From an uncultured Bacteroidales bacterium (lineage in GTDB: Bacteria; Bacteroidota; Bacteroidia; Bacteroidales; WCHB1-69), in contig ONCM01000003.1 of the NCBI GenBank assembly GCA_900316305.1, forward strand, positions 4,762-68,761: a stretch of DNA of 64,000 bases, in the 5' to 3' direction. Position numbers and translations under genes: made by a program. The number at the start of each line of letters is the position of its first letter. Positions within the stretch are counted from its first letter, which is position 1. Shown here in pieces: positions 2,714 through 37,787 of the stretch. The notes beneath the pieces were generated by a model. That model had not been told where the DNA came from, did not search any database, and saw nothing but the letters and a program-made list of their open reading frames with translations.

Positions 2714-3811
2714 ATGCCGAGGATTATGCATTTATGTAACTTATTAAAAAAGAGTGTCTTATGGCTTCTTATTCTGCCAATTTTGGTCATTTCTTGCGTA
2801 CCAAAACCGCCGCTACCTGATCCTGAGCCCATCCCTGATACATACGCGAACGGACTTTTCATTCTCAATGAAGGTCTTTTCCAACAGAATAACAGTACGT
2901 TATCATACTATAATTATAAGGATGGAACATTCACTGCGAATATCTTTTTGGATGTCAATCATCGTGGTTTGGGCGATGTGGGCAACGATTTGCAGCGATA
3001 TGGCAGCAAACTCTACATCGTGGTCAACAACTCCAATATCGTGGAGGTGGTGGATGCAAAAACTGTCCAATCGTTGAAAACCATCAATTTGAACGGCAAA
3101 CAGCCGCGCTATATCACCTTTTTGGACAATAAAGCCTATATTTCCTGCTTCGATGGCGATGTGGTGCGCATCGACACAGCTGCTTTAGAGGTGGAAGCCA
3201 CCGTGCACACCGGTCCGAACCCCGACGGCATCTGCACCTGCAATGGCAAGATTTACGTCTCTAACTCCGGCGGCCTCAGTGCCCCGAACTACGGCAACAC
3301 CGTTTCGGTAATCGATCCCGCCTCATTCACCGTCACCAAGGACATCACAGTGGCAATCAATCCCACCCGTATCAAATCTTACAACAACCGCTACGTCTAT
3401 GTGGTCTCCAATGGCGATTACGGCACCGTGCCTTATACCTTCCAAAAGATTGATTGTCAGACTGATGAGGTGGTAAAAACATACAATCTCGAAGTCCTGA
3501 ACTTTGAAATCCACCAAAACCTCGCCTACATCTACACTTACAATTTCAACACCATGACTTCCGCATGGATCAGCGTGTTGGATTTGGAAACGGACGAAAT
3601 CGTGAAGGAGCAGTTCATCAGCGACGGCACGCAGCTGAAGACCCCTTACGGCATCAAAGTGAACCCATTGAACGGCGATGTCTATATCACCGATGCGGGC
3701 ACCTTCACCACCAATGGCGACATCTACTGCTTCGACAAAAACGGCAAGAAGAAATTCTCGTTTGAAGGCGGTTTGAATCCGTCGGCAATGGTGATTGACT
3801 TCGGCGAATAG
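2714..3811 (+). CDS. btuG: BtuG-like (YncE/DUF5074) beta-propeller surface lipoprotein, likely B12-binding
   Basis: Lipobox LVISC, motifs FILNEG..NNSTLSYY, LGDVGND and KLYIVVNNS, and a position directly downstream of a cobalamin riboswitch. The start may be 2726. Confidence 0.85.
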   Translation: MPRIMHLCNLLKKSVLWLLILPILVISCVPKPPLPDPEPIPDTYANGLFILNEGLFQQNNSTLSYYNYKDGTFTANIFLDVNHRGLGDVGNDLQRYGSKLYIVVNNSNIVEVVDAKTVQSLKTINLNGKQPRYITFLDNKAYISCFDGDVVRIDTAALEVEATVHTGPNPDGICTCNGKIYVSNSGGLSAPNYGNTVSVIDPASFTVTKDITVAINPTRIKSYNNRYVYVVSNGDYGTVPYTFQKIDCQTDEVVKTYNLEVLNFEIHQNLAYIYTYNFNTMTSAWISVLDLETDEIVKEQFISDGTQLKTPYGIKVNPLNGDVYITDAGTFTTNGDIYCFDKNGKKKFSFEGGLNPSAMVIDFGE

Positions 3812-5284: not shown

Positions 5285-6052
5285 ATGAATAATATGAATG
5301 CGATAATCATAGGAATACTGCTGCCTTTGCTCGGCACGATGCTGGGCTCGGCTTTCGTCTTCTTCATGAAGAAGGAAATTCCAGACAGGATGCAGAAGAC
5401 GCTATTAGGATTCGCCAGCGGGGTGATGGTGGCGGCCAGCGTGTGGTCGCTGCTGATACCGTCGATTGAGATGGTGAGCGAAAGTGTGTTGCCGGCTGCC
5501 ATTGGATTCCTGGCCGGTATCGCCTTCTTGCTGTTGATCGACGAACTGACACCGCACCTGCATATCGGCGCAGAGACGGCCGAAGGACCGAAATCGAAAC
5601 TCTCGCGCACGATGATGTTGGCACTGGCGGTAACCATCCACAATCTGCCCGAAGGCATGGCCGTAGGTGTGGTCTTCGCGGGCGAAGCGCAAGGACTGAC
5701 CCTCAGTGCCGCCCTCGCGGTGAGCATCGGCATCGCCATACAGAACATTCCTGAGGGCGCCATCATCTCCATGCCTATGCACGCGGAGGGCAATTCCCGC
5801 ATGAAGTCGTTCCTCATCGGCACCCTGAGCGGTGTGGTGGAGCCCATCGGAGCGGTGGCCATCTTACTGCTGGCCGGCGTACTAGGAGTGGCGCTTCCCT
5901 ACCTGCTGGCTTTCGCCGCCGGTGCCATGATGTATGTGGTTGTGGAGGAGCTCATTCCCGAAACCGCCCAAGGCACCCACACTAACCTATCCACCATCGG
6001 TTTCGCCATGGGCTTCGTACTGATGATGGTGATGGATGTGGTGCTGGGATAG
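5285..6052 (+). CDS. ZIP (ZupT/GufA) family metal transporter
   Basis: Motifs GFASGVM, PHLH, IHNLPEG.AVG, AIQNIPEG and EELIPE, with multiple TM helices. Confidence 0.93.
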   Translation: MNNMNAIIIGILLPLLGTMLGSAFVFFMKKEIPDRMQKTLLGFASGVMVAASVWSLLIPSIEMVSESVLPAAIGFLAGIAFLLLIDELTPHLHIGAETAEGPKSKLSRTMMLALAVTIHNLPEGMAVGVVFAGEAQGLTLSAALAVSIGIAIQNIPEGAIISMPMHAEGNSRMKSFLIGTLSGVVEPIGAVAILLLAGVLGVALPYLLAFAAGAMMYVVVEELIPETAQGTHTNLSTIGFAMGFVLMMVMDVVLG

Positions 6053-6742: not shown

Positions 6743-8878
6743 TTAAATTTTTACATTCACCCCAAAATAAACGCTCCTCGGCTGCTTCGGGCCGTAGATA
6801 TAGCCCGCGTCGCGAAGAATGCCGTAGTCCAAGTCGGGCTGGTAGGCGTTAGTGATGTTCTGCATACCTGCCGTCAGGCGTAACACAATCTCATTGAAGC
6901 CCACTTCAGACGGGCGCTGTATCACAGAAAAACTCTCTTCTGACTTCCGCTGAATCTTGAAATGGAAGTCGTATGAAACCTGCGCGTTAAGGACAAAAAA
7001 CGACTGCGTCTTTACCAAAACTGGCGGTTCGGTCTCGTGAGGCACCAGCATCGGGCCGGTGAAATTACCCGTAACGTTCAAGGTCAGGTGACGCCAAGGG
7101 TTGCTCTCAAGTATCAGATAGCCATAGACATCCGGTGTTCTGAGCATCCGGATTTCGGGAGCGGCGTCCTCACTCCATTCCACCGGCTCTGTGTAGCGGC
7201 TCACCTGCCATGTGGCCCCGAGTTGACCGGAAATCCAGCGGTTCCAGGCCACTTTCACCGCACCATGTACGCCCGCCACATACCCACGACCGGCATTATA
7301 ACGCTCTGATATTTCGTTACCTGCGGCATCCTCATATCGTCTTTCAGCAAAGATGTCTTTCAGGTAGGTGTAGAAGCCCTCGCCAGTCAAGTCCACATCC
7401 ACGCCACCTTTGTAAAGACAATAGTCGGTGGAAAGGGAGACGCTGTGTGAACGCTCCTCTTTGAGGTCTGGCGCTAGGGTACTGATGATGCGCTCTCCGC
7501 CCGCCAAAGAGACGTGCAGATCCTCGTCGTAGGTTTGCGGAGCCCGGAATCCGGTGGCGTAACTTACTCGTAAAGAAAGTCTTCGAATCGGATTGTAACG
7601 GATGTTCACCCTCGGGGAGAATATCGGGCGACTGATGAGCGAATGTTTGTCCATGCGCACGCCGGCTAACAGCGACCATTTTTCGTTTTTCCACTCGTTC
7701 TGTGCATAAATACTGCCGATATGCACGTCCTGGTGAAGATATTGTGCGTAACCCGGGATAGAGTCAGTCAGGTGATCGAAATTGTATTCCGCACCCACAG
7801 TCAGGGAGGCGGGCATAAACCACAGTTTGTCAAAGTGATAGCGCCACAGGGCACCGGTGGCGAGGGTGAAGTTGGTGGTATAGCCGTAAGCCTTCAACGC
7901 ATCGAAGCGCTCTTCGGGCGTGCCTTCGCCAATGCCGCCGTAGTAGCTGTTGCGACAGATGTGCTGCAGGGCGGTGTAAGCCTCCACGTGTTGGTGCCCG
8001 AAGTCGATATGGTAGTCAAGATGACCGCTGTGGATGAGATGCGCCGCGCCTTCGGAAATGTTCGACTCATGGGGCTGCAGACCGAGGTTGTTGCCGCCTC
8101 GATGCTCGTCATTGACGATGTTGTAGCGGACGCTCAGTTTCGACAGCCGCGTAGGCCGTACAAACGCATTCAGCCCGACAGAGAGGTTTCGCAACTTCGG
8201 GAGGTCGCTATAGGCGTCGCCGTTGCGATCGTACGGATCGCGATGGCGGTCTTGCGCGAACAGGTAAACGCCTGCGTTGCGGTTCCGCGTGACGGCAGAG
8301 GCATACGCGTGAGTGGTGTTGTCGAAGGTGCGCGTAAAGTCGTAGTTGCTAACAGTATGACCAAAGCCGCCGCCGTTCTCCGTAGCCTCCTTGGTGATGA
8401 TGTTGATGACACCTGCTACCGCCGATGCTCCGAACAGGGCACTGCCGCCGCCTCGCATCACTTCGATGCGGTCGATCATCTCCGCCGGAATCTGCTCAAG
8501 ACCGTAAACACCGTTCAACGAGGAGAATATCGGCTTCGAATCGATGAGAATTTGCGAATAATGGCCGTCCAGTCCGTTGATGCGCACCTGCGTGAAACCG
8601 CAGTTCTGGCAGTTGTCCTCCACGCGCAAACCCGGCATAAAGTCGAGGGTTTGCGCCAAACAAACGGCATTGGTGGCAATCATCGTGCGCGGCGTGACGA
8701 TATCGATCAATGCTGGTGCCTCCCGTCGGAGAGTTTGTTCGCGATTGGAAGATATGGTGATTTCATCCACGTGCAGCGTGTCGTGCTCGTGGTCATGGTG
8801 CGGCAAATCCTGGGCCCCCGCACCAAAGGCCAGCACCCCAAACAGAACCGTCAGGGCGCAATTTATACGTCTTTTCAT
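6743..8878 (-). CDS. TonB-dependent receptor, probably for a metal
   Basis: Plug motifs PGLRVEDNCQNCG and IDRIEV.RGG.SALFG..A.AGVINIITK, His-rich N-terminus HHDHEHD, and C-terminal YGP..PRS.YFG. Confidence 0.93.
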   Translation of the reverse strand: MKRRINCALTVLFGVLAFGAGAQDLPHHDHEHDTLHVDEITISSNREQTLRREAPALIDIVTPRTMIATNAVCLAQTLDFMPGLRVEDNCQNCGFTQVRINGLDGHYSQILIDSKPIFSSLNGVYGLEQIPAEMIDRIEVMRGGGSALFGASAVAGVINIITKEATENGGGFGHTVSNYDFTRTFDNTTHAYASAVTRNRNAGVYLFAQDRHRDPYDRNGDAYSDLPKLRNLSVGLNAFVRPTRLSKLSVRYNIVNDEHRGGNNLGLQPHESNISEGAAHLIHSGHLDYHIDFGHQHVEAYTALQHICRNSYYGGIGEGTPEERFDALKAYGYTTNFTLATGALWRYHFDKLWFMPASLTVGAEYNFDHLTDSIPGYAQYLHQDVHIGSIYAQNEWKNEKWSLLAGVRMDKHSLISRPIFSPRVNIRYNPIRRLSLRVSYATGFRAPQTYDEDLHVSLAGGERIISTLAPDLKEERSHSVSLSTDYCLYKGGVDVDLTGEGFYTYLKDIFAERRYEDAAGNEISERYNAGRGYVAGVHGAVKVAWNRWISGQLGATWQVSRYTEPVEWSEDAAPEIRMLRTPDVYGYLILESNPWRHLTLNVTGNFTGPMLVPHETEPPVLVKTQSFFVLNAQVSYDFHFKIQRKSEESFSVIQRPSEVGFNEIVLRLTAGMQNITNAYQPDLDYGILRDAGYIYGPKQPRSVYFGVNVKI

Positions 8879-8972
8879 TATTTGTTTGCTTGTTTATTAG
8901 TAATCAGTGATTAGTGAGTATAGTCAATGAATAGTATACGGCAAGTACAACGTTGCCGCAAACTACTAACTG

Positions 8973-9347
8973 CTAACTTCTAACTACTAACTGAACTGGC
9001 GGTGCCCGTAACAAGCTCACCCCCTCGACTGAACGAATCTCACAGGGAGTGGAAACAAAATAATGGAGAAAAAGGGTGAAAGTTCCGCCGGAGAAGTGTT
9101 GGCACACCGGCAGAACAACTTTCGTGACGGTAAAATGGCAGATGGCGCAATCGCTGTCGTCATCCTCATCGACAGATTGCAGGATGGTGTGCGCGAGCGT
9201 GTGGTGCGACATCGAAATGCCGTCCAACGGGCAGACAACATCCTCCTCCGCCGTCCAGTGATGGTGGTGGAGGGCCTTGGTGCCGGTCATGCCGCAGAAC
9301 ACGAGTAGCAGCACCCACGCGGTCAATTGTCTTAGTCGTGCGCTCAT
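8973..9347 (-). CDS. DUF2946/CruR-like upstream regulatory peptide (TM helix, His tract, CxxC, C-terminal RAPP)
   Basis: N-terminal hydrophobic helix, HHHH, DCAICH and LLRAPP 7 residues from the end. Lies 95 bp upstream of the TonB receptor on the same strand. Confidence 0.75.
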   Translation of the reverse strand: MSARLRQLTAWVLLLVFCGMTGTKALHHHHWTAEEDVVCPLDGISMSHHTLAHTILQSVDEDDDSDCAICHFTVTKVVLPVCQHFSGGTFTLFLHYFVSTPCEIRSVEGVSLLRAPPVQLVVRS

Positions 9348-9353
9348 TTCGGC

Positions 9354-9424
9354 GGCAAAAGTACATTTTTTTCGGTTGTGAATTTATGGTATTATTCCTC
9401 CCGAAAATAGCTACTTCTTGGGAT
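9354..9424. repeat. 71-bp intergenic direct repeat, copy 2
   Basis: Near-identical to 5174-5244 and contains the minus-strand TACTTTTG promoter of the RAPP gene. Confidence 0.9.
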
Positions 9425-9479
9425 GTTGCCATATCCAGAAAATAAGATTTTTGCCGCCAGAATTATAAGCAGACTAATT

Positions 9480-9728
9480 ATGGGACTTTTAAGCAGATTT
9501 TTCAGCAATGCAAGGAAGCCCGAAGGCTTTTTAGGCAAGATAATGGTGAATGGAATGAACGGCGGCGGTCACGCCGCGATGGATGCCAAATGGGAGAGCA
9601 TGATTGAGGGAATGCACACTTACACGCCCGAAGAAATCAAACTCCATCTTACGAATGTCGGCTTCCATGATTTCAACATCACGGTAAACGAGGAAAAGCG
9701 GTGGCTGTGCGTGACGGTGAGGAAATGA
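9480..9728 (+). pseudogene. Class I SAM methyltransferase with an in-frame internal deletion
   Basis: The N-terminus ARKPEGFLGK.MV.GMN.GGHA joins directly to the C-terminus IEGM..YT.EEI...L...GF...WLCV. No SAM-binding GxG core; 82 aa. Confidence 0.7.
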
Positions 9729-18078: not shown

Positions 18079-18140
18079 GATGATTGTCTTTTGCAATTGC
18101 GGCGGCAAAAGTACAAAAAAAGTGTATTTTTGCAGCCGCA

Positions 18141-18274
18141 AAATGGTGAAGGGAAACAGGTGCGAATCCTGTACAGTACCCGCTGCTGTAAGTTCCGCGA
18201 AAGGAGCCGCAAAATGTCACTGTCGAAAGATGGGAAGACGCCGCTTCAGGAACAAGTCAGAAAACCTGCCATTT
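18141..18274 (+). promoter_or_regulatory. Cobalamin riboswitch 2 (P2 stem absent)
   Basis: GGGAAACAGGTGCGAATCCTG, CCCGCTGCTGTAA, TCACTG..GGGAAG and AAGTCAGAAAACCTGCC. Promoter TATTTTTG at 18125-18132. Confidence 0.93.
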
Positions 18275-18419
18275 ATGCGTTGTTAATCGCTTCGGGAGGT
18301 AGGCGGATACAAAAGAGACCTTAATCACACTCTTTGTTTCTATTATTAACCGAAGCATTTTGTCAAACTTAAATGCTAAGGATTACACGTATTTGGTATT
18401 TTTAATAAACAAAACAATT

Positions 18420-19697
18420 ATGAAGAAATTATTACTCTTTTTCGGTTTATTTTGCATGATAAACCTGACTTTTGCCCAACAGACGGTGATTCTGAATGGA
18501 CATGGAAATCATGATGGTGCAGTCCGCGATGGCGATGATCCCGTTGACGCATCCCTCCCCTTTAGCGACATCCTTTTCTGGGTGGGCAGCGGTTCCGACA
18601 GCGCTGAGTTCATCGTCAACTTTGCGCAACCTGACACCGCATTCGCATGGGGCTTCCTCTTCAACGGCAGCACCACCGCACAAGAGATGGTCAATGCCAT
18701 CGCAGCCGCCGACCCCCGTTTCTGGTCCGAAGGCTCTCCCTCCTCTGGCGGTGACCTCCACTTCGTCCTCTCCAACGGCGACACCCTGGGACTTTCCCCC
18801 GTTGATCCGACTATGGGTTACAACTTCTGGTGGACCAACCTCAACGGTGTTAGCGCAGGTGCCGGTGCAGCTAGCACACTCCATAACGGAGACATATTCA
18901 AATACGGTGACATGAATTCCGCCATCGGCTGGGATTTCCAGTATGGTTATTACATGGAAGAGGCATGGGTCAAGACTCCCACTGCTGTCGCGCCTCCTAC
19001 AGATCCTCTTCCCGATGAGGCCACTATCGCCTTCAGCGAAATCCTCTACTGGGTGGGTGAAGGTTCCAACGAGGCCGTCATGGCCGTCAACTGGGCTGAC
19101 ACTGCTTTGGCATGGGGCTACCGCTGGAACGGCACTGCCACCGTCGCTGACATGATAGCTGACATCGCCGCCGCCGACCCGCGCTTCAGCTACGAACTGG
19201 GCAGCTGGGGTCTCGACGACATCATCTTCGCTGTTGCCGAAGGCGACACCCTCCGCAAAGTTCCCTACAGTTATTGGGAAAGCAAGAACAATGGCTATAC
19301 GGATATGGGTATGGGTCAGACCCTCGCCAACGGTGACTTCGAGAAGTGGGCCGAACCCGCCGCCGGCATCATCGCCGATAGCATGGAATACGATGGTTAC
19401 TGGTACTACACCTACGTCTATCCGATGACCATCAATCCCGTCTCTGTGCCCGAGACAGGCTCAGGCATCGACAATCACGAGATATCCCGCATGTACGCGT
19501 ATCCGAACCCGTGCACGAACACGCTCTACATCACCAACGAGAACGCCGAGCGCATCGAACTGTACAATGCTAACGGCAAACTGTTGGAGGCTGTCGAGAA
19601 CCACGACACGCAAGTGACTCTGAATATGCAACAGTATCCTGCTGGCCTCTATCTGCTGAAAGTCGGCAATGACGTGCAGAAAATCTTGAAGAAATAA
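18420..19697 (+). CDS. T9SS-secreted protein with two transcobalamin/DUF4430-like domains (putative cobamide-binding protein A)
   Basis: Signal peptide, two I.[FY]WVG.GS..A....N[FW] domains and a T9SS type A CTD (YPNP...YNANG...G.YLLKV...KILKK). Riboswitch-controlled. Confidence 0.85.
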   Translation: MKKLLLFFGLFCMINLTFAQQTVILNGHGNHDGAVRDGDDPVDASLPFSDILFWVGSGSDSAEFIVNFAQPDTAFAWGFLFNGSTTAQEMVNAIAAADPRFWSEGSPSSGGDLHFVLSNGDTLGLSPVDPTMGYNFWWTNLNGVSAGAGAASTLHNGDIFKYGDMNSAIGWDFQYGYYMEEAWVKTPTAVAPPTDPLPDEATIAFSEILYWVGEGSNEAVMAVNWADTALAWGYRWNGTATVADMIADIAAADPRFSYELGSWGLDDIIFAVAEGDTLRKVPYSYWESKNNGYTDMGMGQTLANGDFEKWAEPAAGIIADSMEYDGYWYYTYVYPMTINPVSVPETGSGIDNHEISRMYAYPNPCTNTLYITNENAERIELYNANGKLLEAVENHDTQVTLNMQQYPAGLYLLKVGNDVQKILKK

Positions 19698-20062: not shown

Positions 20063-20148
20063 AATTTTGATTATTAACAACTTATAAAACATTCGGATTC
20101 CCCCGAATGGGACTGCAAAAATACAAAAAAAAGTGTATTTTTGCCGCC

Positions 20149-20321
20149 GGTTTGGTCGCCCTGACGAAGGGCGCCAAGAGGGAAGCCGGTGCGAGTCCGG
20201 CGCAGTCCCGCTGCTGTAAGCTCCAACGAACTGAAAGCCCAATTTTAACGTCACTGTGTGCTGCCATAAGTACATGGGAAGACAGGGCCGACGGGGAGCA
20301 AGCCAGAATACCTGCCAAACC
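20149..20321 (+). promoter_or_regulatory. Cobalamin riboswitch 3
   Basis: AGAGGGAAGCCGGTGCGAGTCCGG, CCCGCTGCTGTAA, TCACTG..GGGAAG and AAGCCAGAATACCTGCC. P1 is GGTTTGGT/GCCAAACC. Confidence 0.95.
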
Positions 20322-20486
20322 CTGAGAAATCGGTAACGCTTTCGAGGAAAAGCACCCCGAACAAGGACCCGTCAGGTATTCATTACCTCCCCTTTTGTGT
20401 GGTTCGAAGGTTCGCACGCGCCTGTTTCCCAAAAGTTTTTGCCGATATTGGACAGAAATGGTCAAACATTTTTAAACAATATCATT

Positions 20487-23400
20487 ATGGTAAAAAAACT
20501 ACTTGTATTCATCATGGCTCTGGGGCTTGCATTAAACGCCTCAGCCCAATTGACAACCATCGACCCGAATGATGTCCAATTCTGGACCGGCACCGGCAGC
20601 AACAGCACGGTCGTCGCCATCGGTTGGGACGATGATTCAGCTCCTTACACGCCCACCGTGGTGATCTGGGGCGTGCGCTGGGAAGGCAGTATCTACCTTG
20701 TCAACGCATTGGACACCATCGCCGCCTACGACAGTCGCTTTTCCTACGTGATGGGCGGCAGTGGATTCCTGACATCGCTCTATTACAACGACCCGGACGA
20801 AGGCCTTGTGCTGACCCCTTCGGGAGGATTTAACTGCAACAATTACGGCGGAGCTTATGGCTCAACTACACTCAATAGCACGCACTTGCGGATTACCGAA
20901 TCCACATGCAGCAACTACAACTTTGCCGGTGTGACCAACATTGTCTATGCTGTCGACCCCAACGCCGTAACCTCCTGTCCCAAGGCGCAAAGCGTTAGCA
21001 TTTCAGATCTTACCGCCTATAGCGCCACGGTAAACATCACCGACACCACCAATTTGAATAACTATACAGTAATGCTTTTTGAAGGCGACTCGCTGATTGA
21101 CAGCGTCGTCATCTACACCCAGACCATCTCCTACTCTACCCTTACCGCCAACACCGGCTACACGGTGAAGGTCTTCTCCAACTGCTCCGACGGCACGCAG
21201 ACCACAGCCCGCAGCGCCAGCTTCCGCACTCCGTGCGTAGAAGTGGCTCACACCGAACTTCCGTGGACGGAAGATTTTCAGTCTTACAATGGCCTGTCTT
21301 ATGCGTCCGCGTCGGTCTCCTTCGCCAGCCAAGTATTCTGCTGGGATCTGATTAACCCCTACAGCACCTCCGATCCCTATATCAACAACTCTTCCTCGGT
21401 CAATGTGAGCGGCGGCAAATGCCTCTACGTGAGCAGCCGTCCCACAAGTCCGACCATTCTGGTGCTGCCGCCGTTTGAGGACACCCCCAACCAGTTGCGC
21501 CTCCAATTCGACGTGCTCTCCACCTACGGACACGGCTTCGAAGCGGGTGTCATCACCGATGTGACGGATGAAACCTCCTTCACCCCCATCGCTACCTGTC
21601 TGCCAACCAACAGCGGTTGGAACCACTTTGAGGTTTCCTTCGCTGGCTTCACCTCCGGCAGAATCGCCCTCCGTTCCAACGACAACGGTCCCGCCTATCT
21701 CGACAATATGATGGTGGATGAAGTACCTTCCTGCGTGAAACCTTCTCAGGTGATTGTCTCTAACATTGATGTCTATTCAGCTGACATCACGATCACCGAT
21801 CCCAATAATACTAATCATTATATGGTATATGCCGCCGAAGATAGCGTAGAAATCTATAGTGACAGCTACACTCTCACCAACCTGCAGCCCAACACGCTCT
21901 ATGTGGTGGGTGTGCGCACCATCTGCAGCGACAACACCATTACAAACGCTACCGAAACCTCCTTCCGCACCGGCTGTGGCCCGATTGCCATCCCCTATCA
22001 TGAGGATTTCAGCCAGTTTGCGGATTTGTCCAACGGCTACGGCTACGCAGTGACCGACAGCACCCTACCCTGCTGGGGCTTCTTCAAATCACGTGCGCTC
22101 GACCGTCTGGAGCTCTTCCCCTACACGTCCACTTACGGCTATGGCGAGGATGGCTACACCTTGCGCATCTATTCCAACAATTCCAACTCTATTGATATTC
22201 TGATGCTTCCCGAACTTGCTCAAGCAACCAATACGTTGGAAATCAGCTTTATGACCCGTCCTTCCGAAACCGGCTCTTTTGGCGGTATTTTGGAAGTGGG
22301 CTATATGACCGATCCCACCGACACAGCCAGTTTTGTCGCGGTGACCAGCTATAGCTGTGGCCAGTTCACCAACGGCTACGACCTGCGTGCCGTCACCTTG
22401 AGCAATGCACCCGCCAATGCCCGCATCGCGATACGCACAATCCCCACTGGCGGTTCCGCCAAATCTTGGTACATCGATGACCTCGACGTTCACGACATGC
22501 CCGCCTGCGCCCGCGCCAACGGCATCAGCGTGGATAATATCACCACCGACGGCTTCACTCTTCACGTGGACGACCCCACCTTGGTGAACAACTATCGTTA
22601 CTATATCAGCTCAGAAAATAGCGTTGATAGCGCCGACTTCTACGACACAGTGGTTATCGTCAACGGTTTGGCCGCTTCTACGGACTTCGAACTCACTGTA
22701 GTCTCTATCTGTCCCGATGGTACTTTCACTTTGCCTCACACCATTTCGGTCAGCACCCTCTGTGCGCCCGTGCCCGATGTTCCCTTCGTGGAAAACTTCG
22801 AAAGCTGGACGGCCACTCAGTCGGAGGGCATGAACCGTTGCTGGAACCGTCTGTACTGTAACTCATCCAGCAGCTTGGTTACCAACAACTATCCTTATTG
22901 TGCCAGTGGTAGTGGCAATGCCTACAACGGCTTCAAGTCACTCAAGATGTACTCCAAAGGAACTACCAGTGCCATCAAAGAATACTCCGTGGCTTATCTG
23001 CCTGAGTTTACGGCTAATATGAACACCCTGAAAGTAAGTTTCTTCTACAAATATGGTGGCAGCACCACCAATATGAACAAGGTGCGTATCGCTGTTGGTA
23101 TCAGCGAAGACGTGACCGACACCACCACTTTCACCCGTTTGGCCACCCTCACCCCGACCGTCATCGGTTGGAACGAGTTTGAGGTGGAATTCAGCGGCTA
23201 CACCGGCAACGGCAACCGCATCACCATCATGCAGACCAGCACCGGCACCACCGCCATCACCAGCTACATCGACAGCGTGGTGGTGGACACCGTCAGCAGC
23301 TGCAACCGTCCTACCACTTTTGAAGTGTCCAACATCTCCGCTTACGGCGCTACCCTTACCTGGACCGATCCCGGCACGGCAGACTCCTACATCGTGCGCT

Positions 23401-25745
23401 GGACCGACGGCACTACGACCGACAGCGTCATCGTCACCAACGACACCCTCTACGAACTCAGTAGTCTGTTGCCCAGCACCACCTATTCTGTGGATATCCG
23501 CAGTATCTGTTGGGGCGAACCCACCAATGCCCGCACGCTGACCTTCGCCACTTCCTGTGCTCCCATGCCGCTGCCGTGGAGCATGGACTTCGAAAACATC
23601 ACGAATATTAACCAACTCTCTTCCTGCTGGAACAGATATAGCGGTATTTATGTTGACTCTACCAACAGTGCTACGCTGACCTCCACTTCCAGCGGTTGGG
23701 CACGTTCCAACACTGCTTTTGACGGATCGTCACATGTGAAAGTCAACATCTATGGAACTTCATGCAAGTATTGGTTAGTGACTCCTGAAATTGATCTCAC
23801 TGCGAATGCCGAGCTGACCTTCGACTATATGTTCACCGCTTACAACAATGCCAACGCTCCTCAAACAGGATCCGGCCTTGATGATGACCGTTTCATCGTG
23901 CTCGCCACCACCGACAACGGCACCAGCTGGACTCCTATTGCCAAGTGGGGTAACGACACCGTCAACCGCGATGATTACTACCTTGCCGATGTTACCAACA
24001 CCGTATCCAATATCACCCTCTCTTTGGCTGATTTCACCGGACAAGTTGTTCGACTGGCCTTCTACGGCGAAAGTACTGTCGGCGGCACCGACAACGATTT
24101 CCGCATCGACAATATCGTAGTGGCATTGGCAGCCGACACTACCTCCACTCCCGACACTATCCCCACGCCTCCTCCTACCCCTGAAGATGCCACCATCTCC
24201 GCTAATGACATTATCTACTGGATTGGCAGTGGTGACGAAAGCGCCATCTTCGTACTCAACATTGACACTACTTCAGTGGCTTGGGGTTATCACTTTGATG
24301 CGGATGATGAACCCACGATTGACGATATGATCGCCGACATTGATGCCGCTGACCCGCGTTTGGCCTACACTGTCAGCTATGAAACATACGAATACACTTT
24401 CTATTATGTCAATCACCCGCTCAAACTCATCGGCGACAACTTCCGTTTCAAAGTGAATGGCTCGTTGGCTTCCGCCCTTGAAGAGTTTGAAGACTATGAC
24501 CTTGCCGACAGCATGATCGTTGTGGTCAGCACGTTGGCAGGTGATGTCTGGAACACGCCTATTGTTCCTGCAACCGTGGCTACCATGCCGGTAGATGCTA
24601 CCATCTCCGCTGAGGAAATCCTCTATTGGGTCGGTGAAGGCAGCAACGAGGCCGTCATCGCTATCAACTGGGGCGTTCCCGACACTGCACTGGCTTGGGG
24701 TTTGCGTTTCAACGGCAATCTGACCGTGACCACCGCTTTGCAGGCGCTCGTTGCCGGTGAAAGCCGTCTCACGACCAACACCGCCATGTCCACCTTCGAC
24801 TACAATGATGGGACGGTCAACCTCAGCTTCCAGAATAATCCTAACAACTTCATGCAGTTCATCCTCAACGGCAACTCACAGGCTGGTCTGTCCAGTCCGG
24901 TGACCGACGGTGCTTTCCTCAAGGTAGGTGAATCCGCTTACGGTATCGGTTACGACTCCACCGCATACGCCGGTATGTGGTATCCGTCGGGCGTGGCATG
25001 GCCGACCACCATTCATCCTGTTACAGCTCCCGACACCACACCTATAATCCCCGTCCCCGAAGAGGCCACTATCGCTTTCAGCGAAATCCTCTACTGGGTG
25101 GGTGAAGGTTCCAACGAGGCCGTCATGGCTGTCAACTGGGCCGACACTGCTTTGGCTTGGGGTTACCGCTGGAACGGCACTGCCACTGTCGCCGACATGA
25201 TGGCCGATATCGCCGCCGCCGACCCGCGCTTCAGCTACGAACTGGGCAGCTGGGGTCTCGACGACATCCTCTTCATTGTTGCCGAAGGCGACACCCTCCG
25301 CAAGGTTCCCTACAGCTATTGGGAAAGCAAGAACAATGGCTATATGGATATGGGTATGGATCAGACCCTCGCTAACGGTGACTTCGAGAAATGGGCCGAA
25401 CCCGCTGCCGGCGTTATTGTCGATAGCATGGAATACGAGGGTTACTGGTACTACACCTACGTCTATCCGATGACCATCAATCCTGTTTCTGTGCCCGACA
25501 CCATCCACGACGGCATCGATGACCACGAGATGTCCCGCGTGTACGCCTACCCGAACCCGTGCACGAACACGCTTTACATCACCAACGAGAACGCCGAGCG
25601 CATCGAACTGTACAATGCTAACGGCAAACTGCTGGAGGCCATCGAAAACCGCGACACGCAAGTGACTCTGAATATGCAACAGTATCCTGCTGGCCTCTAT
25701 CTGCTGAAAGTCGGCAACGGCGTGCAGAAGATTCTGAAGAAATAA
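20487..25745 (+). CDS. 1752-aa T9SS surface protein: transcobalamin-like domain, 4x (FN3 + jelly-roll/cleaved-adhesin-like), 3 transcobalamin-like domains, CTD (putative cobamide-binding protein B)
   Basis: Signal peptide. Four FN3-like units bounded by C..P and F.T.C, each followed by a P[WYF].E[DN]F...ID[DN] module. Four I.[FY]W.G.G domains. T9SS CTD. Confidence 0.88.
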   Translation: MVKKLLVFIMALGLALNASAQLTTIDPNDVQFWTGTGSNSTVVAIGWDDDSAPYTPTVVIWGVRWEGSIYLVNALDTIAAYDSRFSYVMGGSGFLTSLYYNDPDEGLVLTPSGGFNCNNYGGAYGSTTLNSTHLRITESTCSNYNFAGVTNIVYAVDPNAVTSCPKAQSVSISDLTAYSATVNITDTTNLNNYTVMLFEGDSLIDSVVIYTQTISYSTLTANTGYTVKVFSNCSDGTQTTARSASFRTPCVEVAHTELPWTEDFQSYNGLSYASASVSFASQVFCWDLINPYSTSDPYINNSSSVNVSGGKCLYVSSRPTSPTILVLPPFEDTPNQLRLQFDVLSTYGHGFEAGVITDVTDETSFTPIATCLPTNSGWNHFEVSFAGFTSGRIALRSNDNGPAYLDNMMVDEVPSCVKPSQVIVSNIDVYSADITITDPNNTNHYMVYAAEDSVEIYSDSYTLTNLQPNTLYVVGVRTICSDNTITNATETSFRTGCGPIAIPYHEDFSQFADLSNGYGYAVTDSTLPCWGFFKSRALDRLELFPYTSTYGYGEDGYTLRIYSNNSNSIDILMLPELAQATNTLEISFMTRPSETGSFGGILEVGYMTDPTDTASFVAVTSYSCGQFTNGYDLRAVTLSNAPANARIAIRTIPTGGSAKSWYIDDLDVHDMPACARANGISVDNITTDGFTLHVDDPTLVNNYRYYISSENSVDSADFYDTVVIVNGLAASTDFELTVVSICPDGTFTLPHTISVSTLCAPVPDVPFVENFESWTATQSEGMNRCWNRLYCNSSSSLVTNNYPYCASGSGNAYNGFKSLKMYSKGTTSAIKEYSVAYLPEFTANMNTLKVSFFYKYGGSTTNMNKVRIAVGISEDVTDTTTFTRLATLTPTVIGWNEFEVEFSGYTGNGNRITIMQTSTGTTAITSYIDSVVVDTVSSCNRPTTFEVSNISAYGATLTWTDPGTADSYIVRWTDGTTTDSVIVTNDTLYELSSLLPSTTYSVDIRSICWGEPTNARTLTFATSCAPMPLPWSMDFENITNINQLSSCWNRYSGIYVDSTNSATLTSTSSGWARSNTAFDGSSHVKVNIYGTSCKYWLVTPEIDLTANAELTFDYMFTAYNNANAPQTGSGLDDDRFIVLATTDNGTSWTPIAKWGNDTVNRDDYYLADVTNTVSNITLSLADFTGQVVRLAFYGESTVGGTDNDFRIDNIVVALAADTTSTPDTIPTPPPTPEDATISANDIIYWIGSGDESAIFVLNIDTTSVAWGYHFDADDEPTIDDMIADIDAADPRLAYTVSYETYEYTFYYVNHPLKLIGDNFRFKVNGSLASALEEFEDYDLADSMIVVVSTLAGDVWNTPIVPATVATMPVDATISAEEILYWVGEGSNEAVIAINWGVPDTALAWGLRFNGNLTVTTALQALVAGESRLTTNTAMSTFDYNDGTVNLSFQNNPNNFMQFILNGNSQAGLSSPVTDGAFLKVGESAYGIGYDSTAYAGMWYPSGVAWPTTIHPVTAPDTTPIIPVPEEATIAFSEILYWVGEGSNEAVMAVNWADTALAWGYRWNGTATVADMMADIAAADPRFSYELGSWGLDDILFIVAEGDTLRKVPYSYWESKNNGYMDMGMDQTLANGDFEKWAEPAAGVIVDSMEYEGYWYYTYVYPMTINPVSVPDTIHDGIDDHEMSRVYAYPNPCTNTLYITNENAERIELYNANGKLLEAIENRDTQVTLNMQQYPAGLYLLKVGNGVQKILKK

Positions 25746-27951: not shown

Positions 27952-29106
27952 ATGACGCACAAACGATATTTTCTCTGCATTTTCTTGATGTTGAATGCGG
28001 CTGCCATCTTTGCGCAAACGCCCATTCAAGTTGCTGATTTGTCTTTTAAGTTGAATGGCAACACAGCAGAAGAGTTCTATTACAGTTTCGCTGAAGGGGA
28101 CATAATGGTTGTGGATTTTGAACTCGCCAAGGGGAAGGGAGTGCAATTTGAAATTGTGGAACTACCTAACCAGATTAAAACAAGCCAGTTCACAGCGAAA
28201 ATGACCGATTATCGACTAAATGTTTTCTCTACAAAGGTCTATTTGTTCAGGATAACCAACGGATTGGGCAACAAAATGTGTTCTCTTCACATTAAACGTA
28301 TTCCCAAATCGCAAGAAACACTGAAATTCAATACGGGATGGGAATGGAAAACACTTTATGACACTACATATAATCACTATTCGGAAGATTCTCTTGTCGG
28401 ACATGATACGGTACATTACATGGAGACAATAAAAGAAGTGGACTCAAGAGAGGTGTCAGAAGAAATGTTGTTCGATCGTAAAGAGGAAATACCTTCTATT
28501 GCCAAAATGTTTTTGGACGAAAATCCTCGTAAATGCATTACATTCCATTTACCTCAAAACATAGAAAATACCTATTTGAGGAAGACTGTGATTGGTTGGG
28601 GCTTTTGGATATGTGTGGGAGATCATTCAAGCAGTTGGTGGAGCAAAAATAAAAATTTAATGATTAAAGGGGCTTCTACTATTGCGGGAACAACAATGAG
28701 CCCTTTGGGTGCTTTCGTCGCAGGAGAAATTACAAATTTACTAATTCCAGACAAAGGCGCAGTGGATAATGTTATATGGGCTGTTATTTCTAATTGGAAC
28801 GACAGAAATGCATTTGTAAATGGAGAACGTGCATATTGTATGCAAACTGGAAATGGTCCAGGTGCATGGGGAAAATTTTTAGATGCAAAGGATACCCAAG
28901 GTACATATCACATCTGTTTACGAAATGACAATACTATAGGAAAAATAAGGGTGAACGTGAAAGTATCTGTTCTTGTGGAAACCATTACCTATAAAGATGT
29001 AGATTATCCTCGGACACGGATAGTTCCTCAATATGTAAAAGTACCAAAAGTCCGCAGGAATATTACCTCCCGTCAGATCAGAGTTCCAGTGAATGAAGGT
29101 AGATAA
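27952..29106 (+). CDS. Secreted hypothetical protein
   Basis: 384 aa with a signal peptide (AAAIFAQ). Its end is 13 bp from the start of the C10 protease gene. Confidence 0.75.
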   Translation: MTHKRYFLCIFLMLNAAAIFAQTPIQVADLSFKLNGNTAEEFYYSFAEGDIMVVDFELAKGKGVQFEIVELPNQIKTSQFTAKMTDYRLNVFSTKVYLFRITNGLGNKMCSLHIKRIPKSQETLKFNTGWEWKTLYDTTYNHYSEDSLVGHDTVHYMETIKEVDSREVSEEMLFDRKEEIPSIAKMFLDENPRKCITFHLPQNIENTYLRKTVIGWGFWICVGDHSSSWWSKNKNLMIKGASTIAGTTMSPLGAFVAGEITNLLIPDKGAVDNVIWAVISNWNDRNAFVNGERAYCMQTGNGPGAWGKFLDAKDTQGTYHICLRNDNTIGKIRVNVKVSVLVETITYKDVDYPRTRIVPQYVKVPKVRRNITSRQIRVPVNEGR

Positions 29107-29119
29107 TAATACAATCATC

Positions 29120-32100
29120 ATGAAAAAGATCACGTTATTGTTAGCATTGATTATGTGCGTCAATATGGTCTTCTCTAATCCTGTTGACACAATTACGGCA
29201 AAACGAGTAGCCATCAATTTCTGGAAACAGAACAATGCAGGGCCAACTGTAAATGGTAAAACTTTGCGTTTCCAACGAGAGGTCCCGGATTTTCGTCTTC
29301 TGCCTGATACCCTTTTCTCGGGTTTTTACATCTTTAATGCTGTAAATGGAAAAGGATTTGTCATTGTTTCGGCTAATGATAATGCAATCCCCATATTAGG
29401 ATATTCAATGGAAAACTCTTTCCAAATTGAAAATATGCCTCCTAATCTTAAATTTTGGTTGGAAGGCTACGAACAAGAAATCCAAAATGCAGATTATGTC
29501 AGATGCTCTAATGAAATACGTAGTGATTGGGGAATGTTGTTAGCTGGCGAGCCTTTGCCTGTAAAAAGTACTACCAATGTTACTCCTCTATTAACTACAC
29601 ATTGGGACCAGGGTTGGCCGTATAATTTATCTTGTCCATACGATTATGATGCTGAAGATAATACCATGACAGGATGTGTGGCAACAGCCATGGCACAGGT
29701 GCTGAAATATTGGGAATATCCTCAAATTGGAACAGGTTCTCATACTTACATAGACCCCAATTACGGCATGCAGAGCGTGGATTTTGAGACAGGAATTGCT
29801 TGGAATGAGATGTTGAATGACTATTCTACATCTACTTCATATACTCTCATGCAAGCAAGTGCTATTTCATCATTGATGTATATGTGCGGAGTAAGTGTGG
29901 ATATGAATTATGGTATTTATGCTAGTGGAATATCAAATTTTATTAACGAATACGGATTACTACCGTTACCTTGTCCTGAAACGGCGTTAAAAACATATTT
30001 TAACTATAGTGACAATCTTGAGGGAATATCTAAATCTGATTTCACATCTGCTCAATGGATAAGTATATTAAAAAATGAGTTGGATTCAGACAGAGTGATT
30101 CTCTATACAGGACATGACGCGAACAACACAAGTGCACATGCTTTTGTTTGTGATGGCTATTCTAATAATAATAATTTTCATTTTAATTGGGGATGGAGTG
30201 GTTATTGTGACGGATATTACTCTATTAACAATCTTGCTCCTGGATCTGGAGGATCAGGTAGTGGTAACGGTAATTATACTTATGGTCAACAAGCTATCAT
30301 TCACATTACACCATCCAATCAGGTAGTTCATCCTAATTACGATCTTGTGATGAATAGCACGTTGACCACATCTGACACTAGTTATTTGTTTGGCCCCAAT
30401 CATCCAATTTCGATTAATTGTGCAGTAGCAAACACAGGCAATGCGACTTTTAATGGGTATCTTGTTGCATTAGTGTCGGATTTAAACGGAAATATTGTAG
30501 CTGAAATCACATCTTCCTATACCACAATCTCTCCAAATCATTATGTGAATAAAAGCTTTACGGTTCAAGGAGGGTTGCCTTTAGGGCCTGGAAGATATTT
30601 TGCTATTATCACTTCTGCAACAAATCTTAATGATCCTGCTACATCGCGAATCATCAGAGATAATTTGTCCAATATCAATTTTGCTCAGTTCAAGGTGACC
30701 TATGAAGCGGACATTGAAACCTTTTCTGAGTTTGAGCTGTCGGAATACATGATATATACAGGACAATCGCTTTCAGTAAACGTGGATATTGCAAATTTCG
30801 GTTCCGATTTTTCTGGTGATTTTTCTGTTGCGTTACTCTCTATGACTGGTTCGTATGTTCAAACTATTCAACAACATACTCTTACAATTCCTCTTGAGAG
30901 TATGACACATTATACTAACGGAATCGACTTTACGGGTACTATTACTGCTTCTGCCGGTGATTACTTTCTGACATTACGGTATAGACCGCAGGGTTCTTCC
31001 AATTGGTATTATGCGGGCAGTTATTTTTATCAGAATCCAGTCAGAATTACTGTTTACGCTCAGCCCGTGGCGGATATGTATGAAGCGAATAATACGGCTG
31101 CAACCGCATATACTTTATCTCCTGTTTTTACAGATAACATGGCCAACGTAAATACCAATGGAGCAAACATCCATTCTATCACCGATGTTGATTATTATAA
31201 AATTATCCTTCCTTCTGGATATTCTTATGATATAGTTCCAATCCTGCAAGACGTGTATTATAATGATGACATATCCTATTCAGTCGATGCAAAGTTTTAT
31301 TTTTCTGTCAACAATACGACATCTTGGCAAGGACCGTTTGATTACGATGCTAATATTCTAACATATATAGCTAATTATTGTGGGACTACGATGAGTGACG
31401 GAGGAACTATATATTTTAAAGTGTTACCCACATCCCAAGGAGACATAGGTACTTATTCACTGCATGTTGTATTGAATCGTTCAATTAGCCCTGACCAGTA
31501 CGAGCCAAACAGTACAGCATCAACAGCTTACAATCTTGGCACTGTCAACTCCAGTAGTGTAAATTACAATGTGAACGCCAACTTCCATATCACCACTGAT
31601 GCAGATTACTACAAGATTAACCTTCCGTCAGGTTATTCCTATACCATAAACGCAAATATACTTAACAGTTACAATAACACCTCCTATACAGCAGATGCAA
31701 AATTCGCGACATCCCAAGATGGTAGCACTTGGTCTTCCAACTATGGGAATGCCATGTCAGCAATGACAATGAGTGATGGTGGAACACTTTATTTTCGGGT
31801 TTTACCTTATACTGACCATGAAATAGGAACATATCAATTGCAAATTTCCATCACTCGGACAGGCGGTGTTGAACCTGACCAATACGAGCCGAACAATACA
31901 GTCAACACTTCCTATTTACTGGCTACAATAGACGAACCGACATCTTCCATTGTTGCCAATGCGTCGTTCCATACCACATCGGATGAAGATTACTACAAAA
32001 TTGATTTCCCGGCAGATTATAATTACACTATTGAAGTTGTGATGTTCGACTGCACAAATGACCCTAACTGTTCTGTGGATGCGAAAATCGCAGTCTCTGA

Positions 32101-32494
32101 CGACGGAAACAACTGGTCTTCGTTCTATGGGACTTCCATACCACCAATGACCATTGAAGATGGAGGAAGACTTTATTACCATGTCGCTCCTCAACAAACA
32201 GCTGCGACAGGGACCTACCAATTACATTTCTCAATTTCACGAACAACGGGAATCCAAGACAATGAGTTTGCCTCCATCATGATCTACCCAAATCCTGTAA
32301 CCGACCGTTTGGTCATCAGTGGCACAAACGAGATCCAGTTGGACGGTATAGAAATATATGACATCACAGGTCGCCTCATACAAACGGTTCAAAAAGATTA
32401 TCGGGTGATAAATACCTCTCAATTATCGAAAGGCACCTATATGCTGAGACTGTTTACTTCTGAAGGAGAAGTCGTTAGAAAGTTCTTGAAATAG
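29120..32494 (+). CDS. C10 (streptopain-like) cysteine protease with prodomain, Ig-like domains, three D.YE.N repeats and a T9SS CTD
   Basis: Prodomain GFVIVS.....PILGYS, catalytic GCVATAMAQ, HAFVCDGY and FHFNWGW, and C-terminal YPNP..YDITG..KFLK. Confidence 0.92.
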   Translation: MKKITLLLALIMCVNMVFSNPVDTITAKRVAINFWKQNNAGPTVNGKTLRFQREVPDFRLLPDTLFSGFYIFNAVNGKGFVIVSANDNAIPILGYSMENSFQIENMPPNLKFWLEGYEQEIQNADYVRCSNEIRSDWGMLLAGEPLPVKSTTNVTPLLTTHWDQGWPYNLSCPYDYDAEDNTMTGCVATAMAQVLKYWEYPQIGTGSHTYIDPNYGMQSVDFETGIAWNEMLNDYSTSTSYTLMQASAISSLMYMCGVSVDMNYGIYASGISNFINEYGLLPLPCPETALKTYFNYSDNLEGISKSDFTSAQWISILKNELDSDRVILYTGHDANNTSAHAFVCDGYSNNNNFHFNWGWSGYCDGYYSINNLAPGSGGSGSGNGNYTYGQQAIIHITPSNQVVHPNYDLVMNSTLTTSDTSYLFGPNHPISINCAVANTGNATFNGYLVALVSDLNGNIVAEITSSYTTISPNHYVNKSFTVQGGLPLGPGRYFAIITSATNLNDPATSRIIRDNLSNINFAQFKVTYEADIETFSEFELSEYMIYTGQSLSVNVDIANFGSDFSGDFSVALLSMTGSYVQTIQQHTLTIPLESMTHYTNGIDFTGTITASAGDYFLTLRYRPQGSSNWYYAGSYFYQNPVRITVYAQPVADMYEANNTAATAYTLSPVFTDNMANVNTNGANIHSITDVDYYKIILPSGYSYDIVPILQDVYYNDDISYSVDAKFYFSVNNTTSWQGPFDYDANILTYIANYCGTTMSDGGTIYFKVLPTSQGDIGTYSLHVVLNRSISPDQYEPNSTASTAYNLGTVNSSSVNYNVNANFHITTDADYYKINLPSGYSYTINANILNSYNNTSYTADAKFATSQDGSTWSSNYGNAMSAMTMSDGGTLYFRVLPYTDHEIGTYQLQISITRTGGVEPDQYEPNNTVNTSYLLATIDEPTSSIVANASFHTTSDEDYYKIDFPADYNYTIEVVMFDCTNDPNCSVDAKIAVSDDGNNWSSFYGTSIPPMTIEDGGRLYYHVAPQQTAATGTYQLHFSISRTTGIQDNEFASIMIYPNPVTDRLVISGTNEIQLDGIEIYDITGRLIQTVQKDYRVINTSQLSKGTYMLRLFTSEGEVVRKFLK

Positions 32495-37700: not shown

Positions 37701-37787
37701 TGTAGAGACGCGCTGTAGCGCGTCTCTGTTGTGGAAACATGTTGCAGCACGTCTCCGCTGTAGAGACGCGCTGCAGCACGTCTCTAC
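37701..37787. repeat. Cluster of three GTAG-type REP units
   Basis: Two GTAGAGACGCGCTG..GC.CGTCTCT copies plus one degenerate middle copy. Confidence 0.85.

Follow-up and report, generated by a model that had tools for sequence, protein, structure and literature searches.

Regulation by arrest peptides that sense a metal by way of the nascent chain was discovered recently and has so far been studied in two Proteobacteria only. CruR (Bp2923), a DUF2946 protein of Bordetella pertussis, is reported to arrest in vitro with the third and fourth codons of its RAPP motif (Pro, Pro) in the P and A sites of the ribosome, as seen by toeprint (PMC12992588), and to act by a Rho-dependent route ahead of a TonB-dependent transporter (PMC9426467). 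In the account given in PMC9426467, more than 95% of DUF2946 members carry an export signal, the gene is always the first of its operon and often has a TonB-dependent transporter as partner, intergenic distances are long, and the CxxC and RAPP motifs are spaced by 45 residues (±1-2). CutF of Rhodobacter capsulatus is described as opening a stem-loop which otherwise masks the start of the next gene (preprint 10.1101/2025.02.05.636593); it is reported to be copper-induced and to need its signal peptide (the same preprint; PMC9973294). A rule-based survey counted 5,334 CutF-like proteins; Bacteroidota contribute 19% of these, and TonB-like proteins rank among the most frequent neighbours (PMC9973294). 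Small RAPP or RGPP proteins with signal sequences are reported upstream of TonB-dependent receptors throughout Gram-negative bacteria (PMC12992588). Here we describe an open reading frame (ORF) of 124 amino acids (aa) upstream of a TonB-dependent receptor gene in a 64,000-nucleotide stretch of DNA, the window, from an uncultured rumen Bacteroidales bacterium (contig ONCM01000003.1 of assembly GCA_900316305.1). The ORF is most likely a cis-acting metal-responsive translation-arrest leader of the CutF/CruR kind, forming with the receptor gene a two-gene operon served by one upstream promoter. That it is an arrest-type regulatory leader at all is held with good confidence.

The open reading frame and its family

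The ORF occupies 8973..9347 of the minus strand, stop codon counted, as determined by ORF reading, homologues and hhalign; its parts, the spacer and the receptor gene all lie on this strand. An earlier note made from the sequence had placed the candidate at 8878..9347. The ORF itself lies in that range, but 8878 is the first base of the receptor ATG and the range adds the 94-nucleotide (nt) spacer. The parts to which the note had pointed, an N-terminal helix, HHHH, DCAICH and LLRAPP in a 124-aa ORF upstream of a receptor, were all found in the ORF reading and the AlphaFold2 model. The helix covers codons 3-26 (9270..9341) with the hydrophobic N-terminus LTAWVLLLVFCGM; R4 and R6 precede a hydrophobic stretch at 8-22, and the helix is predicted to be either a signal peptide or an N-in membrane anchor. 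AlphaFold2 gave pLDDT values of 81-93 for the first three ten-residue blocks, which hold this helix, and 53-73 for the remaining chain, with no confident metal site or fold past the helix. HHHH is formed by codons 27-30 (9258..9269). The CxxC motif CAIC, codons 67-70 (9138..9149), is situated within DCAICH (66-71) directly after an acidic run, and further His and Cys residues are present. RAPP (CGG GCA CCG CCA), codons 114-117 (8997..9008) within LLRAPP (112-117), is the predicted arrest site on the basis of motif and conservation. It lies 43 residues from CAIC, and the stop codon TAG comes seven residues after it.

As judged from its sequence, the ORF falls within the CutF-like class of PMC9973294. 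It has a predicted export signal or N-in transmembrane segment at its N-terminus, a conserved Cys/His motif (CxxC at 67-70), a Pro-rich or RAPP motif less than about 15 residues from the C-terminus (114-117 of 124) and the first place in an operon in which a same-strand metal-related gene, here the TonB-dependent receptor, comes after it. It likewise has each of the sequence-level features of DUF2946, namely export signal, first gene, TonB partner and long intergenic region, and its distance of 43 residues from CxxC to RAPP agrees with the 45 (±1-2) given for that family.

Close homologues were searched among 5.8 billion proteins with a cut-off of E <= 0.01, which gave 24 relatives of the window ORF among 29 candidates, with 62-97% identity. 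LLRAPP is present in 23 of the 25 alignment rows; one exception is truncated and the other has a diverged C-terminus. In all 21 full-length homologues (62-88% identity) H27-H29, C39, H49, H53, C67, C70 and R114-P117 are invariant, so that the conserved His/Cys set of the peptide consists of H27-29, C39, H49, H53, C67 and C70. Loss of CxxC and RAPP from orthologues, which the earlier note held to speak against a switch, was not found: both motifs are invariant in 21/21 close homologues and near-invariant in a wider set of 44 sequences. The stretch from CxxC to RAPP varies in sequence in the close alignment and is free of gaps, the tail after RAPP varies in both sequence and length, and the N-terminal two thirds of the ORF are highly conserved.

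A scan of one genome per species found 18 related loci, all of them in rumen or gut Bacteroidales metagenome-assembled genomes. Like the window, all 18 have a CxxC-RAPP distance of 43. A receptor orthologue with 79-96% identity follows the small ORF in 18/18 loci after a spacer of 49-173 nt, while the genes beyond the pair change from locus to locus. The pair is thus kept in every locus with differing outer neighbours, and the two genes therefore travel as a unit. The survey of the gene pair, which the earlier note had proposed, also covered more remote loci, with a receptor after the ORF in all 29. At one related locus, L013, the spacer (about 3185-3440) holds some ten CACTGAT/CACTAAT heptads. 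The receptor there lacks its start codon and signal peptide; its frame is picked up again inside the signal-peptide region, a little ahead of the His-rich stretch. Either an expansion of the repeat has destroyed the start, or the assembly is at fault at this point.

The wider family was searched by profile in 1.84 billion representative proteins at E <= 0.001. It gave 40 proteins, and R[AG]PP was present in 35 of the 37 identifiers looked up, the other two being a CAPP protein and a 56-aa fragment. CxxC lies exactly 43 residues before R[AG]PP in 34 of 35 representatives, and tails have 1-9 residues. In the resulting alignment of 44 sequences C67, C70, P116 and P117 are invariant, R114 and A115 reach at least 90%, and so do H27 and H29. 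Column identity averages 25%, and conservation is confined to the ligand residues, the length of the spacer and RAPP. This alignment gave matches at E <= 0.001 in 70 of the 401 Bacteroidia genomes sampled, which are spread over 43 of 200 genera. A remote set of 30 ORFs was then compiled from 29 newly fetched loci and L004. Every one of the 30 has a hydrophobic N-terminus, His residues, CxxC, an interval of 43-45 residues, R[AG]PP and a tail of 2-7 residues; CxxC and R[AG]PP are separated by 43 residues in 13 loci, by 44 in 15 and by 45 in two, and the motif is RAPP in 16 and RGPP in 14. The next gene has a Plug domain in 29/29 of the new loci, with a CarboxypepD_reg-like domain in 28 of them as well, and L004 has the same arrangement of ORF and receptor. 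In the loci examined, the Bacteroidia family thus always stands ahead of a TonB-dependent receptor. These counts show a design of CxxC, a 43-45-residue tether and RAPP or RGPP that is common in Bacteroidia, and they show that the Pfam and NCBIfam models currently miss the family. As to motif variants in P0026/P0060, one relative has CAPP for RAPP and P0060 has RGPP; RGPP forms are spread over several different families of Bacteroidia.

The ORF might also be taken for a chance open frame with coincidental motifs, as no library family scores it above threshold. This is scarcely credible, and it is refuted by the 24 homologues at E <= 0.01, the 18 syntenic loci, the 70 of 401 Bacteroidia genomes, the invariant motifs and the fixed spacing.

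Conservation also bears on a more serious rival, in which the mature small protein would be exported or anchored in the membrane and would serve the receptor as a metal-binding accessory or chaperone, with RAPP merely slowing translation for export or stoichiometry. The highly conserved N-terminal two thirds with their invariant His/Cys set would suit such a protein, as would the matching His-rich and CxxC features of the receptor. A few of the 44 relatives also match the NCBIfam CzcI-family and LpqS copper-homeostasis models, weakly. The wide family, on the other hand, keeps only ligand residues, spacer length and RAPP at 25% mean column identity. The sequence from CxxC to RAPP varies at fixed length, which fits a tether better than a fold, the tail of 1-9 residues past RAPP is unconserved, and AlphaFold2 gave no confident fold past the helix. 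For CruR and CutF, moreover, the mature protein is reported to escape detection or to be degraded (PMC9426467, PMC9973294). A mature accessory protein is considered improbable on this evidence.

Putative promoter, spacer RNA and the proposed route

Ahead of the ORF, TACTTTTG at 9356..9363 matches TAnnTTTG, the Bacteroides -7 promoter consensus, and ends 8 nt before the ORF ATG. The box is found 8-10 nt ahead of the ORF ATG in 14 of 19 loci and in none of 18 spacers. Its occurrence upstream of the ORF only points to a single promoter, a very short leader and a receptor gene reliant on read-through; the box at 9356..9363 is accordingly a putative promoter. A consensus scan found no terminator-like site on the minus strand, and Rfam had no family at E <= 1 in 8700-9500. 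Two sigma-70-like promoter matches were rejected, being no more than in shuffled sequences and of a promoter type unfit for the phylum. Contigs from four ruminant gut RNA libraries of four studies tile the ORF, the spacer and the receptor 5' end (X6 record 27, 8868-9076; X1 record 4, 8564-8968; X4 record 22, 8506-8981); such contigs cannot prove a single transcript, its ends, strand or level, and DNA is possible in the libraries. A depth spike at 8923-9023 in these libraries is due to a dispersed heptad repeat, seen as a 35-nt piece with unrelated flanks.

The 94-nt spacer (8879..8972) has 34% G+C against 55% for both genes and is predicted to form a long imperfect hairpin. The minimum free energy (MFE) of 8850-9040 is -53.7 kcal/mol (z = -2.79), and none of 200 shuffles was equally stable. 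The hairpin is closed by a helix which joins the arrest site to the receptor start. Its 5' strand is GUGAGCUUGUUA (9009..9020), codons 110-113 for Val-Ser-Leu-Leu, and its 3' strand is AAACAAGCAAACA (8883..8895), which ends 4 nt before the receptor AUG. The Ser-Leu-Leu-Arg codons before and at the arrest site are thus complementary to the 13 nt ending 4 nt before that AUG. In the window this closing helix has -11.0 kcal/mol, is done as well by 16 of 500 shuffles and is part of the MFE fold. Inside it, a core hairpin UGCGGCAA-(8 nt)-UUGCCGUA (8937..8960) has no U-tract behind it.

A heptad array AGTTAGN of 4.6 copies, detected by TRF, runs at 8961..8992 through the ORF tail, the stop codon and the spacer start. 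The heptad has 581 matches in the 3.3-Mb genome (284 forward, 297 reverse) against none for the reversed control pattern, and it looks like a dispersed intergenic tandem repeat which is not specific to this locus. Further short-period arrays were observed in the window at 355-422, 44693-44769, 48806-48846 and 60348-60508. In the spacers of L006, L007, L008 and L012, a G+C-rich palindrome of GTAGAGACGCAATGCATTGCGTCTCTAC type takes the place of the window core hairpin; similar 'ACGTCTCTAC' repeats occur in the window at 37701-37785 and 40057-40088, and the palindrome looks like a REP-like mobile hairpin.

The closing helix was compared in 18 loci with a recognisable receptor start, window included. 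In 15 of them the closing duplex is stronger than those of 93% or more of the shuffled sequences. Among about 115 overlapping windows, the stall-proximal ones rank 1-8 as partners of the initiation region in 15/18 loci, 14th in L008 and 53rd in L021 and L022; they are first in the remote L004. The sequence between the closing strands has been remodelled in these loci, with spacers of 49-173 nt and several unrelated hairpins, and the core helix is extended differently by lineage, by GUG:CAC in L014 and L015 and by UUACGA:UCGUAA in L017, L019 and L020. The remote loci have no sequence relationship with one another as RNA. In 9 of the 30, the stretch that pairs best with the initiation region falls within the footprint of the stalled ribosome, against 2.3 expected by position (binomial P ~3e-4, relatedness ignored). 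In several of these nine the 5' strand is made by the tail codons just past the motif, and L038 has an 11-bp perfect helix.

The following route is proposed for the leader, tentatively as far as the unmasking of the initiation region and the relief of the pause by metal are concerned. By analogy with CruR, the ribosome would pause when Pro116 occupies the P site and Pro117 the A site. At this pause 46-49 residues would separate the CxxC from the peptidyl-transferase centre, so that the motif would lie just beyond the exit tunnel, and the paused ribosome would cover approximately codons 112-121. These include the greater part of the closing helix's 5' strand together with the beginning of the helix that follows. 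With that strand covered, the A-rich initiation region of the receptor would be open and receptor would be made while the pause lasts. Plentiful metal would bind the nascent His/Cys segment, and compaction of the chain at the tunnel exit or pulling by the translocon would release the pause. The ribosome would then terminate eight codons on, the helix would re-form and receptor synthesis would fall. The fixed tether of 43-45 residues suggests release by compaction at the tunnel exit or translocon pulling, as proposed for CruR (PMC9426467). Physiologically, it is reasonable for an importer to be shut off when its cargo is abundant. Translation initiation in the phylum Bacteroidota is not known to depend on Shine-Dalgarno pairing, and unmasking would, by analogy, carry the logic of CutF and SecM into such a phylum. 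In motifs, spacing and gene pair the locus supports the suggestion of the earlier note that a switch analogous to CruR may operate in Bacteroidales.

The polarity may also be that of CutF: the exported His/Cys segment would bind metal in the periplasm, the pause would strengthen and metal would induce the receptor. CutF is reported to behave in this way and to require its signal peptide (preprint 10.1101/2025.02.05.636593, PMC9973294), and by an estimate from chain length, residues up to about 55-60, with HHHH, C39, H49 and H53, could be outside the translocon at the pause. Induction of an importer amid plentiful cargo makes little physiological sense, however, and the constant distance of 43-45 residues puts CxxC at the tunnel exit and not in the periplasm, which fits the CruR model better. 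This polarity is regarded as quite improbable.

The main rival is a transcriptional output of the leader. In this CruR-like route the paused ribosome would shield the transcript, and upon release Rho would load on the 3' half of the spacer and terminate transcription before the receptor gene. CruR is reported to work so before a TonB-dependent transporter (PMC9426467), and the genome encodes Rho and also EF-P. The spacer's 3' half is rich in C, poor in G and contains CACTRAT-type heptads, similar C-rich repeats occur in the spacers of L011, L013, L016 and L020, and no intrinsic terminator or second promoter was found in the spacer. Against this, the C-rich tract is predicted to pair with a G/U-rich 5' arm which would hide it from Rho, the heptad arrays are genome-wide and hence no dedicated rut site, and the spacer is shorter than that of CruR (94 nt, and 49 nt in L016, versus 162 nt). 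The conserved pairing of arrest codons with the initiation region would also have no role. The Rho-dependent output seems rather unlikely as the route taken, although the two routes are inseparable by computation and both could operate.

Several observations weigh against an arrest leader that acts by unmasking. The strong conservation of the N-terminal half in the close family would also suit a functional mature protein. With the narrow profile the family is missing from all three same-genus genomes searched, and only 3 of 401 genomes of the order are positive, the window's own included, which makes for a patchy distribution. As to the RNA, the interior of the spacer is a genome-wide heptad repeat, and for this reason the spacer hairpin need not be a dedicated regulator. 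The closing helix is missing in L021 and L022, weak in L008 and not detectable in 21 of the 30 remote loci. Both of its strands are otherwise constrained, one by its amino acids and the other as initiation region, and shared descent of related loci can mimic selection. The low synonymous variation at AGC-UUG-UUA (entropy 0.3-0.5 bit) is suggestive, several other ORF codons being equally low, and the last 4-12 nt ahead of the AUG are unpaired even in the closed fold.

The Pfam scores add to these points, but profile-profile comparison speaks for a link between the families. Pfam DUF2946 (PF11162) scores the window ORF at 11.9 bits (E = 0.4), below its threshold of 23.7, with residues 11-80 aligned to profile positions 6-82, and none of the 30 remote ORFs reaches E <= 0.001 with this model. 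At E <= 1, 21 of the 44 relatives are matched, the best at 1.3e-5. Profile-profile comparison by hhalign of the 44-sequence alignment with six Pfam-detected proteins gave 97.75% probability (E = 1.3e-12) over 103 columns, running through CxxC and RAPP; the six comparators, all from Bacteroidota, are themselves borderline Pfam matches of 21.7-26.5 bits from other classes of the phylum. When 401 genomes of the phylum were scanned with PF11162, seven were positive at E <= 0.001 and four above threshold, all seven outside the class; in the window's genome the one match to the model was a 47-aa frame, unrelated, on a different contig. No DUF2946-labelled protein was reached when the wide alignment was used for a second, word-indexed protein search, and NCBIfam had nothing relevant for the window ORF, the 44 relatives or the 30 remote ORFs. 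On the sequence evidence as a whole, the family is a divergent Bacteroidia branch of the DUF2946/CruR/CutF superfamily, outside the present Pfam model. Membership of Pfam DUF6769 (PF20558) was rejected, the window ORF having no match at E <= 1 (threshold 27 bits); three of the 44 relatives match that family weakly and one remote ORF (L034) has 27.7 bits. L028 and L030, from other classes of the phylum, have Pfam DUF2946 proteins with C-A-L-H-H, not CxxC, before RAPP, a form of the ligand motif composed of Cys and His.

The metal, the receptor and the neighbouring genes

The putatively controlled gene (6743..8878, minus strand) codes for a TonB-dependent receptor of 711 aa, with Pfam Plug at 4.6e-19 and barrel at 3e-32. 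After the signal peptide its sequence starts QDLPHHDHEHDTLHVDEITISSN. The His-rich N-terminus and the CQNC of the plug, on which the earlier note had remarked, are both there. The former is HHDHEHDTLH at codons 27-36 (8771..8800, minus strand; HHDHEHD at 27-33), situated between the signal peptide and a TonB-box-like DEITISSN, and the latter is formed by codons 90-93 (8600..8611, minus strand), as seen in the sequence and in the subfamily comparison. From the general topology of TonB-dependent receptors, the His-rich stretch probably faces the periplasm and not the outside, and beside the TonB box it could sense or pass on imported metal. Both features mark a subfamily: three to five His residues ahead of the TonB-box-like segment are present in 18/18 subfamily receptors with an intact N-terminus, and CQNC in 19/19, whereas CxxC was found in none of 30 receptor fragments from the remote loci and the His-rich and CQNC features are missing from the remote receptors. 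A sequence search of solved structures with the receptor gave only plug-level similarity to CirA, FepA and BtuB; similarity to CrtA/BfrG was not detected among the structures found, no direct comparison with them being made.

Family library matches identify 5285..6052 of the plus strand as a ZupT-like ZIP transporter gene, which converges on the receptor gene. It is adjacent in the window and in 6 of the 18 related loci, on either side of the ORF-receptor pair, and its product is a possible inner-membrane partner of the receptor, the linkage being loose. Beyond it the neighbours of the pair are unrelated, with glutathione peroxidase, GNAT, H+-PPase, DUF4230, MsrA and others among them.

The earlier note had drawn on a neighbouring ZIP gene and on B12 genes in its choice of Zn, Co or Ni. 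The ZIP gene stands, adjacent in just those 6/18 relatives; the B12 genes proved to be three distant cobalamin riboswitches without linkage to the pair. The 33 window ORFs scanned included no gene for B12 synthesis or transport. The riboswitches are full-length (91-111 bits), on the plus strand and kilobases from the pair. The one at 2444-2630 precedes a DUF5074 gene (2714-3811), and those at 18127-18287 and 20136-20333 precede T9SS/Por_Secre_tail genes, at 18360-19697 and, for a 1782-aa fn3 protein, 20397-25745. As they are not linked to the pair in relatives, the riboswitches carry no weight for the ligand. The secreted or surface proteins under B12 control could be B12-capture factors. On the same strand, 29093..32494 codes for a 1133-aa protein in which a Spi inhibitor-like propeptide is combined with a streptopain-like (peptidase C10) domain and a T9SS sorting domain. 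Several Por_Secre_tail proteins, this one among them, form a cluster at 18-32 kb.

Zn, Co or Ni, taken together, seem likelier ligands than Cu. For copper speaks the fact that the characterised relatives sense copper. No COX1 (heme-copper oxidase) or multicopper-oxidase domain was found in the 97%-complete genome, and this weakens the rationale for copper import. For zinc or another divalent metal speak the unusually His-rich ORF, the His-rich stretch and plug CQNC of the receptor subfamily, which the remote receptors lack, and the adjacent ZupT-like gene in the window and 6/18 relatives. All this may be drawn together into one specific picture: a purely translational switch of CruR/CutF type for Zn (or Co/Ni) in a strict anaerobe without detectable cuproenzymes, with a near-leaderless arrest ORF whose own Ser-Leu-Leu-Arg codons are the anti-initiation strand, and with a second metal device in the receptor, the His-rich tail and plug CxxC, which passes the metal to ZIP. 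This combination is doubtful as a whole; if true, it would be the first arrest-peptide-controlled gene shown in Bacteroidota.

Comparison with known systems

Metal-responsive arrest leaders as a kind, including Bacteroidota CutF-like proteins beside TonB receptors, are already known (PMC9973294, PMC12992588). The locus is accordingly less new than the earlier note had assumed, Bacteroidota CutF-like proteins with TonB-like neighbours being catalogued in PMC9973294. A full-text literature search on arrest peptides and TonB-dependent receptors of Bacteroidota gave surveys among the matches listed, none of these being an experimental study in the phylum, and one on zinc and His-rich TonB-dependent receptors of Bacteroides returned nothing relevant. 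What may be new is the frequency of the family in Bacteroidia together with its absence from family libraries, the exact 43-45-residue rule in Bacteroidota, and the pairing of arrest codons with the receptor initiation region along with the special receptor subfamily. The pairing offers a concrete and mutable RNA element in a phylum whose translation initiation differs from that of model organisms. For gut and rumen microbiology, the family marks receptors which are probably controlled by the supply of trace metals.

The survey of PMC12992588 differs from the present work in that its available passages hold no Bacteroidota case study, CxxC spacing or RNA pairing. ApdA/ApdP and SecM resemble the window ORF in a RAPP or RAGP motif near the C-terminus, an export signal and downstream control by the opening of an RNA structure, as they are described; they differ in that they control sec or yidC genes, are released by translocon pulling and not by metal, and are reported with no CxxC. 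A Sec/YidC monitoring substrate of the SecM or ApdA/ApdP type was rejected for the window ORF, the downstream gene being a TonB-dependent receptor and not secA, secDF or yidC.

CutF is like the proposed route in that a paused ribosome is reported to unmask the start of the next gene. It is described with a CxxxC, a PPP motif, a multicopper oxidase as the controlled gene and induction by copper, all unlike the window ORF. CutF hides a Shine-Dalgarno sequence, whereas the masked element in the window would be an A-rich leader without an obvious one.

CruR shares with the window ORF the first place in the operon, an export signal, CxxC, a spacer of about 45 residues and RAPP near the C-terminus, and its locus likewise has a long spacer followed by a TonB-dependent transporter; both peptides are predicted to be poorly structured (PMC9426467). 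The window ORF belongs to another phylum, has a spacing of 43 versus 45, seven residues after RAPP versus three, and extra conserved His residues. Its spacer has 94 nt and is A+T-rich, that of CruR 162 nt in a locus rich in G+C; its receptor gene is not followed by one for PepSY_TM, and the host is without a detectable heme-copper oxidase. The output, Rho-dependent in CruR, may here be translational.

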